In this document: positions 1 through 3,000 of the stretch, piece after piece | How the letters are laid out: every line of letters begins with the position of its first letter | Numbering within the stretch: the stretch's first letter is position 1 | Made by a program: the position numbers | Source: a virus | Reading direction: 5' to 3' (one strand) | Length of the DNA: 42,855 nucleotides | UHGV virus genome: UHGV-2000170

Positions 1-3000
1 ATGGCGCTGTCTGATGCGTGGTTGCGTTCAGTCGTTGGAAAGGAACGTGATAAGGTTTTGGTTAAATCCGATCGTGATGGTCTGTCTGTCAGAGTATCAC
101 CGAAAGGTCGCGTAGTGTTCCAATATCGTTATCAATGGGCAGGGAAAGGTGAGCGTCTTGATATCGGAACTTACCCAGCAACTGGATTAAAAGAGGCCAG
201 AGAAGAAGTTATCCGTCTCCGTGGTGAACTCGAGTCAAACCGTAATCCACGATTGGTCAAGCAGGCTGAAAAACGAAAAGCTACTGAAGCCATGACGGTA
301 GAGTCTGTGATCCGTGCCTGGTATGAAGCATATTGTGTAAAAAATAAAAAAGGCTCTGAACAGATACTCCGCTCGTTTGAGCTGCACCTGTTCTCTAAAA
401 TCGGGAATATCCCTCACGATGCAGCTACATTGCATGATTGGTTAGAAGTCCTGGAGCCTCTTAGCACTAAGACTCCAGCAATAGCAGACCGATTGCTAAT
501 TAACGCAAAGCAGGCCCATGTCTGGGCGTATAAGAGAAAGCTCATTGAAACTCGCCCGCTGTCGGATATCACGGGTAAAGATATGGATATCCGTAAAGGT
601 CAGAAGAAACGGTTTCTGACACATGATGAAATTAAAATCCTTTATGCTGCGATCGATGGTTCTCGAATGGTTCCTAAATACCGGGCCTTCATTAAACTAT
701 TGCTGCATTTTGGCTGCCGTAGTTCAGAGCTAATTACCGCCAGGGTGGACGATTTTGATTTCATTAATAAAGTATGGACTGTACCACCAGAACGACATAA
801 GACTGGGGAGATAACGGGCGAACCGCTAAAGCGGCCCATTATTGAACCGGTTGAAGAGCTTATAAAGTACGCTATTTCTATGAACAATGGTTCCGATATG
901 CTTTTTACTAAGGAAGGAAGCAGGGAACCCGTTGGTCGGACATCATTGCAGTCGCTGCCTTACAATTTAATGCAGTATGCATGGCGGCGTTTGGGGTATC
1001 AATTCCCTCATTGGTCTCTGCATGATTTGAGGCGAACAGCACGAACAAACTTTTCTGATCTTACTGCGCCTCATATCGCAGAAATAATGCTCGGTCATAA
1101 ACTGCCGGGGGTATGGCAAGTTTATGACAAGAGTGATTATTTAGAAGAACAGCGTAAAGCCTACCAGGCATGGTGGGAGAGAGTTGAATCGATTGTTACT
1201 TGTTCTGGTTCAGACACCAACTGACAGTTTGCATATTTTGAACGCAATAAAATATGACAGTCCGCTTTGAGCGAGGAGCGGATATATGATGTTTAGAAAA
1301 CGCGCGATTTGCAGTTAAGCAATCTAAGTTACTGATGTACTATACTGGAACTGCTGGCCAGTTTGTGTTGAACACCATCATTATCACAATAAGGAAATGA
1401 AAGTTGAAATGAATACTAAACTTTTGGCCTATTTAAACAATGAGTTACATGGAGTGTGGGTAGATAGTGAAAATCGTAATATCCACATAATACTTAAATC
1501 AAGCCTTCCTATAATTAAATCCGTCTGGTCAGGAGCACCTATCCACTTTTTGGTAGGTTTATCTACTAAAAATATACTAGTGATTGGGATGTTGATTGAA
1601 GATAATGTCGATAATCCATTTTTACTAGCCTATCCACCAAGAGAGGCAGATGAAATTAAAGGGCTGGATTTGTTATTGTCAGGCGCTTATGATGGTATTC
1701 TATTATCATTTTTTGACTCGCATACAATGCGTGTTATGGACCTGAAAATAAAAGTTTCGGAAAATTTACCGTGTGAATGTTTAAAAAAATTTTGTGCTAA
1801 TTCATATTCTCTCAATTCAGGATTTAGGGAAGGTAATGAAGCAATGGATGAATTCTGCAACAATGCTTTGACTGGTAACGAGAAAATAATTAGTCTGCCA
1901 CTAAGTGTAATCGATAAAAAATCTTACCTAGCAAGTGTTCATGAACCAAACGATACCGTATTAACATATGAATTTAGCGTCAGTGAAAACGGCTCTGAGG
2001 GATATGAGCAGGAAGCTCTTATATACCATGCTTTGCGGCAGGTCTTTTCACCGGAGGAAGTGTTTTTTTCTCCAGATATTATTGAGGGTAATAAAAAAAG
2101 AGAACTAGTTGATATTCTTATTGTAGAAAATGACTATGTATTATCTATACAGTCTAAAGCATCATCTTTGATTGAAATGGGTTTGAAATCTCATGAAAAG
2201 CTTTGTAGCATGTATAAGAAAAAAGCATTGCAAGGGATCGATCAGGTTAAAGGCGTTATCCCAATTCTAAATAATGATGTGGTTATTAATTATGACGGGA
2301 GGGAATGCTTAATAAAGCGCAGAAAGGGTATTTATCATTTAGTGATAATCTCAGATCTTGTTTTAGAGAAAGAAGGTGCTGAAAAGATTTATAACGAAAT
2401 TAGCAACCTTAAAGAGTCAAAAGGGGCGAAAGTTTTAGTTATGAGCCTTGAAGGTCTTGTAAATTTTATAAGACTATCAAGATTAAATAAAAGAATGTTT
2501 TGGGCAATGCTGGAGGCTAAATACAAGTTCAGCATAAAAAACCGTACAATTTTAATTAGAGATATCGACTCTAGCCAAGAGAATAATCTACCATTACTTG
2601 CCACTGATCAATACCTATCACTTCTTCGAAGTACGGGAAAATTAAAATAAATTGTATCAATGATACTGTTGCCACGTATCGAGACTGGCTTATGAACGGA
2701 AGGGTTTTCCAGCAGTTCAGCGACCGGAGCTGCACATCGATGCCGGATTGTGCCTGCAATTATGTACTTGGCTAAGAGGTGCTGCTGGCTCTGGATAGAA
2801 TAACCCTAACGTCCAAAGAGCGCGCATTTTCATGTAAAAAAATAAATAGCTTGTCTGCTCTTGATACAGAGCAGACAGTCAGATCTGTTTGGCTTGTGCC
2901 ATAGATGTGCCAGCTCACATTTGAGCTAATGTTTGTTACTCAATTACTCCTGCAAACCTGTATATCTTACGTGATGCCCATTTATTTGGGCAGGATTTAA

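Follow-up and report, generated by a model that had tools for sequence, protein, structure and literature searches.

A predicted restriction-type nuclease carried by a portable prophage cassette is a candidate single-gene phage-defence determinant

We analysed the UHGV virus genome UHGV-2000170, a stretch of 42,855 nucleotides (hereafter, the window), in which an open reading frame (ORF) of 417 aa, referred to as orf417, occupies positions 1397-2650 of the plus strand. We propose, with a probability of roughly 0.6, that orf417 is the payload of a 1.6-kb moron shuffled among prophages, and that it encodes a single-polypeptide sensor-nuclease protecting the lysogen, and with it the prophage, against other phages or mobile DNA. 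An initial annotation of the window had placed the gene between an integrase gene (int) on the left and an xis-like helix-turn-helix (HTH) ORF on the right, on the strand opposite to the leftward early genes, and this arrangement was borne out by the ORF listing and the Pfam matches. It had also suggested a nuclease fold, an undescribed protein and a cargo hotspot next to the integrase; the profile, structure and PADLOC searches proposed beforehand were run, and all of them agree with that reading.

The orf417 family

The gene had been called an orphan, which it is not. An indexed protein search with orf417 returned 13 clusters, all from Enterobacterales and 54-99% identical, and an HMMER profile search of 1.84 billion representatives returned 225 proteins at E<=1e-3, including 81 at <=1e-10 (family members are counted as representatives at 50% identity). 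A second indexed search, with the wide profile and a capped number of candidates, gave almost exclusively the close clade. Since nearly all of these 225 relatives are about 400 aa long and align end to end, the alignments indicate a genuine, widespread two-domain family; members of about 540 aa differ only by a further tail of about 130 aa, itself uncharacterised.

The protein matches PHROG 30399, a group of unknown function, over its full length (2.5e-293). No match was found in Pfam or NCBIfam, or, at E<=10, in PADLOC-DB v2, which includes Shedu and the PD-T4/T7/lambda, PDC and HEC candidates; that none of these three collections has a model for the protein agrees with its description as undescribed. 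Scanning 74 relatives against PADLOC likewise gave no model, only three single-member matches at chance level. Searches of PDB chain sequences with the close, wide and N-domain profiles yielded chance matches or nothing, and we found no mention in the literature of four family accessions, the PHROG id or the locus tag in Escherichia coli CE10.

The orf417 region is present in 126 of 5,426 complete E. coli genomes, in one copy per genome and always on the chromosome. The match is full-length in 75 of these genomes (>=99% identity in 74), the remaining 51 carry a variant of 90-95% identity, and the copies are invariably annotated as "hypothetical protein". In E. coli CE10 (NC_017646) the prophage is inserted downstream of yjjG. 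A related-locus search with the close-clade alignment found a single species genome, that of Kluyvera. It should be noted that a megablast search of the region matched nothing among the INPHARED phage genomes, so that prophages are the only form in which the element is known.

As the initial annotation stated, the gene is AT-rich compared to the backbone: its GC content is 33.9% (28.5% at third codon positions) versus 50.5% for the whole window. No other 1254-nt window has a lower value, and the 1556 windows that do not overlap the gene are all richer in GC (z = -3.1). The start codon is probably the ATG at 1409, which gives a protein of 413 aa, because most homologs begin there, as does the PGAP annotation in three out of four E. 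coli genomes examined, and because a 1-nt deletion in the Kluyvera copy throws the ATG at 1397 out of frame.

The C-terminal nuclease domain

The C-terminal domain (residues ~198-385; 1988-2551, plus strand) has the restriction-endonuclease-like alpha/beta fold of the PD-(D/E)xK superfamily in the predicted model, and resembles both NERD and FokI/BspD6I. The catalytic core, with codons read directly, spans 2012-2158 on the plus strand and consists of E206 (2012-2014), E236 (2102-2104), D239 (2111-2113), Q252 (2150-2152) and K254 (2156-2158); Q283 lies further downstream, outside this interval. In the alignment of 74 sequences, K34, G202, E206, P226, E236, D239, K254 and Q283 are invariant, and the consensus core, EGxxxE...RELTDxL...LIESK, yields the helix-E, strand-D, strand-ExK pattern of PD-(D/E)xK enzymes. 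The superfamily motif (an acid in helix 1, D in strand 2 and (D/E)xK in strand 3) is thus present, with Q at position 252 in the clade of the window. A D...E...K-like stretch, "ELVDILIVENDYVLSIQSK", had been singled out earlier as the hint of a nuclease. The catalytic core does fall within it, but the residues of the motif are in fact E206...D239...Q252-x-K254, and the middle E (E244) is not conserved; the nuclease-fold hint itself is borne out by the structure and by the family-wide conservation of the motif. The C-terminal half is therefore best described as a predicted nuclease, with a fold of the restriction-endonuclease type and the conserved catalytic set E206-D239-Q252xK254.

The closest fold matches of this domain are the tethered, non-specific cleavage domains of restriction enzymes, followed at lower rank by Can2, NucC, Card1, McrC, Shedu SduA and AspBHI. 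When relatives were scanned singly, 21 of 74 matched Pfam NERD (PF08378) at E<=0.01 (best E 8.8e-6), over almost the whole profile (positions 2-106 of 111). The matches inspected individually scored 14-17 bits, all under the gathering threshold of 22.1 bits, and the window protein gave no match to NERD even at E<=1. Judged by these profile scores, the family is related to NERD only distantly, stays under the threshold and does not count as a member under the Pfam criterion.

Position 252 is E in 64 of the 74 sequences, Q in eight, including the whole clade of the window, and S in two. Such a Gln in place of the acid of (D/E)xK could mean that the enterobacterial subfamily is a catalytically dead nuclease fold that now acts as a nucleic-acid binder, i.e., a repressor-like protein or an exclusion factor. 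We consider this highly improbable. Within the Q252 clade, E206, E236, D239, K254 and Q283 are all unchanged, which would be unexpected after loss of catalysis, and the change from E to Q arose at least three times independently. Furthermore, the catalytic residues of MspJI are Asp334/Gln355/Lys357 ("DX20QAK") and the catalytic domain of Mrr has been described as "PD-QXK"; both enzymes are active with QxK. Because of this invariance, the repeated replacement and the precedent of MspJI and Mrr, Q252 need not mean that activity has been lost.

The cassette

The gene is part of a cassette of 1.6 kb (1261-2870, not assigned to a strand; GC content 36.1%) that was delimited by blastn against other loci. 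Six loci (labelled L013, L019, L020, L021, L022 and L023) match the window at about 92% identity, and the matches are confined to the segment from 1254/1261 to 2650-2877; in the prophage loci L019, L020, L022 and L023, the right limit falls at 2863-2877. This segment is the only one that the window has in common with these otherwise unrelated prophage and island backbones. It follows a P4-type integrase in the window, is flanked by a tail-fibre gene and a lambda-type integrase in L022, has LexA-like/DUF968 genes on one side and DUF4145/lambda-P genes on the other in L019, and, as a copy truncated at its C terminus, adjoins an IS3 transposase in Kluyvera. We found no direct or inverted repeats at the cassette ends, and a transposon-like cassette was ruled out on this ground. 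The discrete insert, the deviant GC content, the hairpins at both edges and the different backbones, together with a presumed promoter, are those of a moron, and the comparison points to a recombinationally shuffled moron rather than a transposon.

The left edge, directly after int, is formed by a stem-loop at 1260-1283 on the plus strand (9-bp stem, -12.8 kcal/mol, z = -3.1 compared to shuffled sequences). Its sequence is kept in all cassette copies, and it may serve as the int terminator or as an insulator. The leader of orf417 (1284-1408, plus strand) is near-invariant in five backbones and contains AAGGA at 1391-1395. An upstream region of its own had been ascribed to the gene, and this is correct insofar as about 135 nt upstream are conserved and move together with it, but a scan of the 172-nt gap after int (1225-1396) detected no sigma-70 consensus promoter. 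Presumably, the leader holds both the promoter and the ribosome-binding site (AAGGA) of orf417.

Downstream of the gene, a non-coding trailer of about 200 nt (2651-2851, plus strand; GC content 45.5% over 2651-2870) is conserved in L019, L022 and L023, with indels of 5 nt and 12 nt, and is absent from the Kluyvera copy. Because of these indels, the trailer contains no ORF. We considered it as a small RNA, an antitoxin or a small ORF and rejected all three, given the lack of an Rfam match, the frame-breaking indels and its absence from Kluyvera.

The right edge lies within an intrinsic-terminator hairpin at 2852-2877 on the minus strand, which has a perfect 10-bp stem and was matched on that strand by the terminator scan. 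The fold of the minus strand has -23.7 kcal/mol (z = -3.1), compared to z = -2.3 and a poor T-run for the plus strand. Because the T-tract lies on the minus strand (the complement of 2836-2851), the hairpin is assigned primarily to the leftward xis operon as its terminator, and it would insulate the cassette. A terminator hairpin had previously been placed at 2836-2877, between the gene and xis; the hairpin is real, but it is located at 2852-2877 and terminates mainly the opposite strand. Cassette homology stops inside it, so that the A-run and the left hairpin arm belong to the cassette.

In the Kluyvera copy (Kluyvera sichuanensis, L013 8010-9164 and 9670-10482), homology is lost about 25 nt past the stop codon, the ORF is about 29 codons short, and the sequence abuts a transposase of the IS3 family. 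This copy is probably decaying.

Genomic neighbourhoods

Sister prophages with an integrase of about 95% identity and the same insertion site hold different cargo in the slot adjacent to int, including an annotated anti-phage dCTP deaminase (PADLOC dCTPase, 2.4e-164). The integrase-proximal slot is a variable cargo hotspot, as had been suggested, and relatives of orf417 elsewhere adjoin known defence genes. The Kluyvera copy (~89% identical) adjoins PDC-S11 (8.6e-107). We also surveyed relatives at a greater distance (30-61% identity). One of them adjoins PD-T7-1 (1.6e-156) in a lambdoid prophage of Morganella, at its int end; in a Rouxiella P4-like satellite, the relative lies between an Ogr/Delta-family gene and int, beside Hydrolase-TM (8.8e-66), a position that we take to be the described P4 hotspot. 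A P2-like prophage has a relative amid its tail genes, and another is accompanied by Mrr, PLD/DrmC-like and HEPN genes in a Tn3-flanked region of Yersinia; Serratia islets contain relatives flanked by insertion sequence (IS) elements and a Fic/Phd pair, and an AlpA/YfjJ-type island also holds one. The gene always sits where anti-phage genes sit, and it resides in defence hotspots of several kinds of mobile elements.

No conserved neighbour and no small partner gene or RNA, as expected of a toxin-antitoxin pair, was found across these contexts. A two-gene system was considered and ruled out, since the neighbours of 438, 432 and 452 aa in three contexts are mutually unrelated; PD-T7-1 is among them, and a second gave a weak match to PD-DExK. 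No methyltransferase of the kind that accompanies Type II/IIS enzymes is adjacent in about 10 independent contexts, and in all of these orf417 or its relative is a predicted nuclease free of a cognate methyltransferase, as in Type IV systems.

Several of these observations bear on a role other than defence, in which the protein would be an accessory nuclease in the service of the element (for example in anti-defence, in degrading host DNA upon induction, or in recombination and movement of the cassette) or else a selfish, homing-type endonuclease that furthers its own transfer between prophages. The differing positions of the cassette in unrelated backbones and its sharp homology breaks could be produced by a self-mobilising nuclease, hotspots also hold anti-defence genes and other morons, and type III secretion system effectors are present at the opposite end of the prophage. 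Conversely, there are neither terminal repeats nor target duplications, each of the 126 E. coli genomes has a single copy, and the neighbours are defence genes, not anti-defence genes. Relatives are also present in a P4-like satellite, in non-phage islands and next to IS elements and toxin-antitoxin genes. In addition, orf417 is oriented away from the lytic operons and lies between insulating hairpins, as would fit a gene expressed in the lysogen. We regard a non-defence role as improbable.

Other genes observed in these neighbourhoods deserve mention in their own right. Two sister prophages carry, in the slot next to int, unrelated, unannotated hypothetical genes of 331 aa (L025 3091-4086, UTI89) and 515 aa (L026 2896-4443, 99E2750); neither has a PADLOC match, and both are candidates for further undescribed cargo. 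In the P2-like prophage (L005), a DUF6602 protein at 9351-10667 follows the homologue and has a weak match to PADLOC "PD_DExK, CAS-associated" (7.9e-8), so that one insertion among tail genes holds two different nuclease-fold genes. In Serratia marcescens (L006), the homologue islet lies between LacI-type and LysR-type regulators and contains three more genes with no Pfam family on record (9603-10901, 11375-11647 and 12045-12875; 432, 90 and 276 aa); the 432-aa protein had no match in PADLOC.

The N-terminal domain and the proposed function

Residues 1-197 (1397-1987, plus strand) form a family-specific alpha/beta domain, a putative sensor or specificity module, that is separate and confidently folded in the predicted model (~195 residues). 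Family-wide, K34 is invariant, and W21, K41, D69, P74 and E108 are near-invariant. The mean pairwise identity is 19.5% for the N-terminal domain versus 29.2% for the nuclease domain, and the C-terminal value is higher in 98% of pairs; such faster evolution of the N-terminal domain is what one would expect if it served as a sensor or determined specificity. The 23 matches of a 2,283-aa protein (P0050) to residues 42-116 were discarded as an artefact of a near-identical tandem-repeat surface protein.

The idea of a reader domain joined to a FokI-like nuclease was formulated ahead of the fold comparison of the N-terminal domain, which was made against PDB structures. About 21-26 of the top 60 matches are YTH, EVE, ASCH, SRA or PUA-type domains, among them the readers of ScoMcrA, SauUSI, AbaSI, VcaM4I and LpnPI, all Type IV enzymes, and such an enrichment of modified-base readers appears hard to obtain by chance. 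The N-terminal domain is nonetheless without a confident structural or sequence relative, and its PUA-like identity in these model comparisons is a lead, not a finding. A distant member of the family (P0043) lies directly downstream of a gene with nucleotide-modification-associated domain 2 (Nmad2) on a short contig (L029 86-595); this one case hints at a connection with the modification of nucleic acids.

According to the proposed mechanism, the lysogen would express the protein from the insulated cassette, and the N-terminal domain would recognise a feature of the invading nucleic acid and thereby position or license the non-specific, FokI-like cleavage domain, which would probably work as a dimer or oligomer, as in FokI- and MspJI-type enzymes. 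Because no methyltransferase protects the host, discrimination of self from non-self would have to lie in recognition by the N-terminal domain. The version of this mechanism that we prefer, although its own probability is fairly low, is a Type IV-like, modification-dependent enzyme that would read a modified or hypermodified base absent from enterobacterial DNA. On logical grounds, Dam sites can be ruled out as the target, since methylation of the Dam type is found in all hosts as well as in the prophage. The prophage encodes a Dam-family N6-adenine methyltransferase at 11215-11901 (plus strand; PF05869, 1.2e-45) in the early-right region, about 9 kb from orf417; the gene is absent from the other contexts, and its presence argues against a modification-dependent activity of orf417 directed at N6-methyladenine in GATC. 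A broader reading, which we put forward as speculative, is that the family represents an unrecognised class of solitary restriction enzyme, in which a new, highly diverged or independently invented reader of a flipped hypermodified phage base (or of modified RNA) is combined with a FokI-like module in a plug-in cassette spread among prophages, P4-like satellites and islands.

Alternatively, orf417 could be an abortive-infection or otherwise triggered nuclease, comparable to Shedu or to the NERD effector ZwsA. Its N-terminal domain would then detect a protein of the phage, an intermediate of replication or recombination, or, like Shedu, DNA ends, and would free an auto-inhibited nuclease that attacks DNA or RNA without discrimination and ends the infection at the cost of the cell; this would still be defence, but not a modification-dependent one. 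We consider it rather unlikely. There is no Pfam match to DUF4263 (Shedu) or to any other abortive-infection family, no signal-generating partner is present, and the nearest folds of the nuclease domain are tethered cleavage domains of restriction enzymes, not ligand-gated effectors; moreover, the enrichment of modified-base readers described above would be hard to explain by chance.

A new single-gene phage-defence nuclease is, in our opinion, a credible reading of orf417. The defence role is argued from guilt by association and domain logic. Three results weigh against the reader idea: six matches of the JAB/MPN fold reach a similar Z, a Foldseek search of the N-terminal domain against PDB gave no significant match, and neither Pfam scans of 45 N-terminal domains nor PDB sequence profiles detected a reader family.

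Comparison with known systems

The modification-dependent Type IV enzymes MspJI, AspBHI and LpnPI resemble orf417 in being solitary and in combining a reader with a D...QxK nuclease. FokI and BspD6I (Type IIS) share the tethered cleavage domain, at an identity to orf417 of only 11-13%; they differ in having a cognate methyltransferase and a sequence-specific recognition domain, whereas orf417 has no methyltransferase in any context. The E...D...ExK core of NERD, matched in 21 of 74 relatives, is also that of ZwsA, a validated single-protein anti-phage nuclease (catalytic residues E535, D567, E580 and K582), but ZwsA, with its VHS-DUF647-NERD-S4 composition, is far larger, cuts the RNA of RNA phages and is unrelated in architecture. 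END nucleases, which restrict hypermodified phage DNA by means of a PLD nuclease and an inactive EndoIII sensor, are likewise solitary restriction-like nucleases without a methyltransferase, found in defence islands and composed of modular sensor and cleavage domains; however, both of their domains come from other superfamilies (a PLD HxK nuclease and an HhH/EndoIII sensor). In structure, orf417 shares no more than the general fold with Shedu (SduA, DUF4263), and it has no DUF4263 or PADLOC Shedu match. At the sequence and profile level, orf417 would therefore be placed outside the MspJI-type, FokI-type, END, Shedu and ZwsA groups, its nearest functional analogues; by analogy, it belongs as a kind with single-polypeptide sensor-nuclease defence, its own defence role being predicted.

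Other features of the prophage

The left neighbour of the slot is the prophage tyrosine integrase with a P4-type arm-binding domain (1-1224, plus strand, 407 aa; Pfam Phage_integrase 1e-17, Arm-DNA-bind_3 1.9e-16, and Phage_int_M). The right neighbour, a small Xis/AlpA-like HTH ORF (2936-3214, minus strand), has weak matches to HTH_17, HTH_23 and MerR at residues 32-52, under the Pfam thresholds, and is plausibly an excisionase; it likely starts at an internal ATG, which gives about 64 aa. It overlaps the end of a 115-aa ORF (3127-3474) and was not called by PGAP in CE10, where no coding sequence is annotated from the orf417 homologue to the next leftward gene. Beside xis in the early-left operon, a PAPS-reductase-domain protein (3471-4466, minus strand) matches PADLOC SspD (5.3e-15) and, weakly, BrxP, and may be a DndC/SspD-like ATP-pyrophosphatase.

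At the opposite end, we detected type III secretion effector cargo, namely an NleG-like protein (39579-40268; PF06416, 3.8e-44) and a homologue of the cycle-inhibiting factor Cif (42007-42855; PF16374, 3.6e-19) that is cut by the end of the window. A second low-GC patch, at about 39600-41100, has 35.7-39.8% GC in 600-nt windows and contains a 191-aa ORF (40606-41181) without a Pfam or PADLOC match, an uncharacterised moron candidate. Virulence morons and the nuclease cassette thus occupy opposite ends of the prophage.

Implications

Single-gene defence candidates of this kind are common in the field, and if orf417 confers no phenotype, it is merely another hypothetical prophage moron. If a phenotype is confirmed, a widespread single-gene system that current annotation tools overlook entirely would be added to the defence catalogue, and the ligand of an N-terminal domain that has no confident relative would be new biology. 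Should the enzyme be modification-dependent, sensor-plus-FokI-type enzymes would be practically useful for the mapping of DNA modifications; if the N-terminal domain is a true reader, the Type IV repertoire would gain a further reader fold, new to it, and possibly a mapping reagent. With its sharp boundaries, the 1.6-kb cassette illustrates well how ready-made defence modules, as its payload is predicted to be, are exchanged among prophages, satellites and islands.

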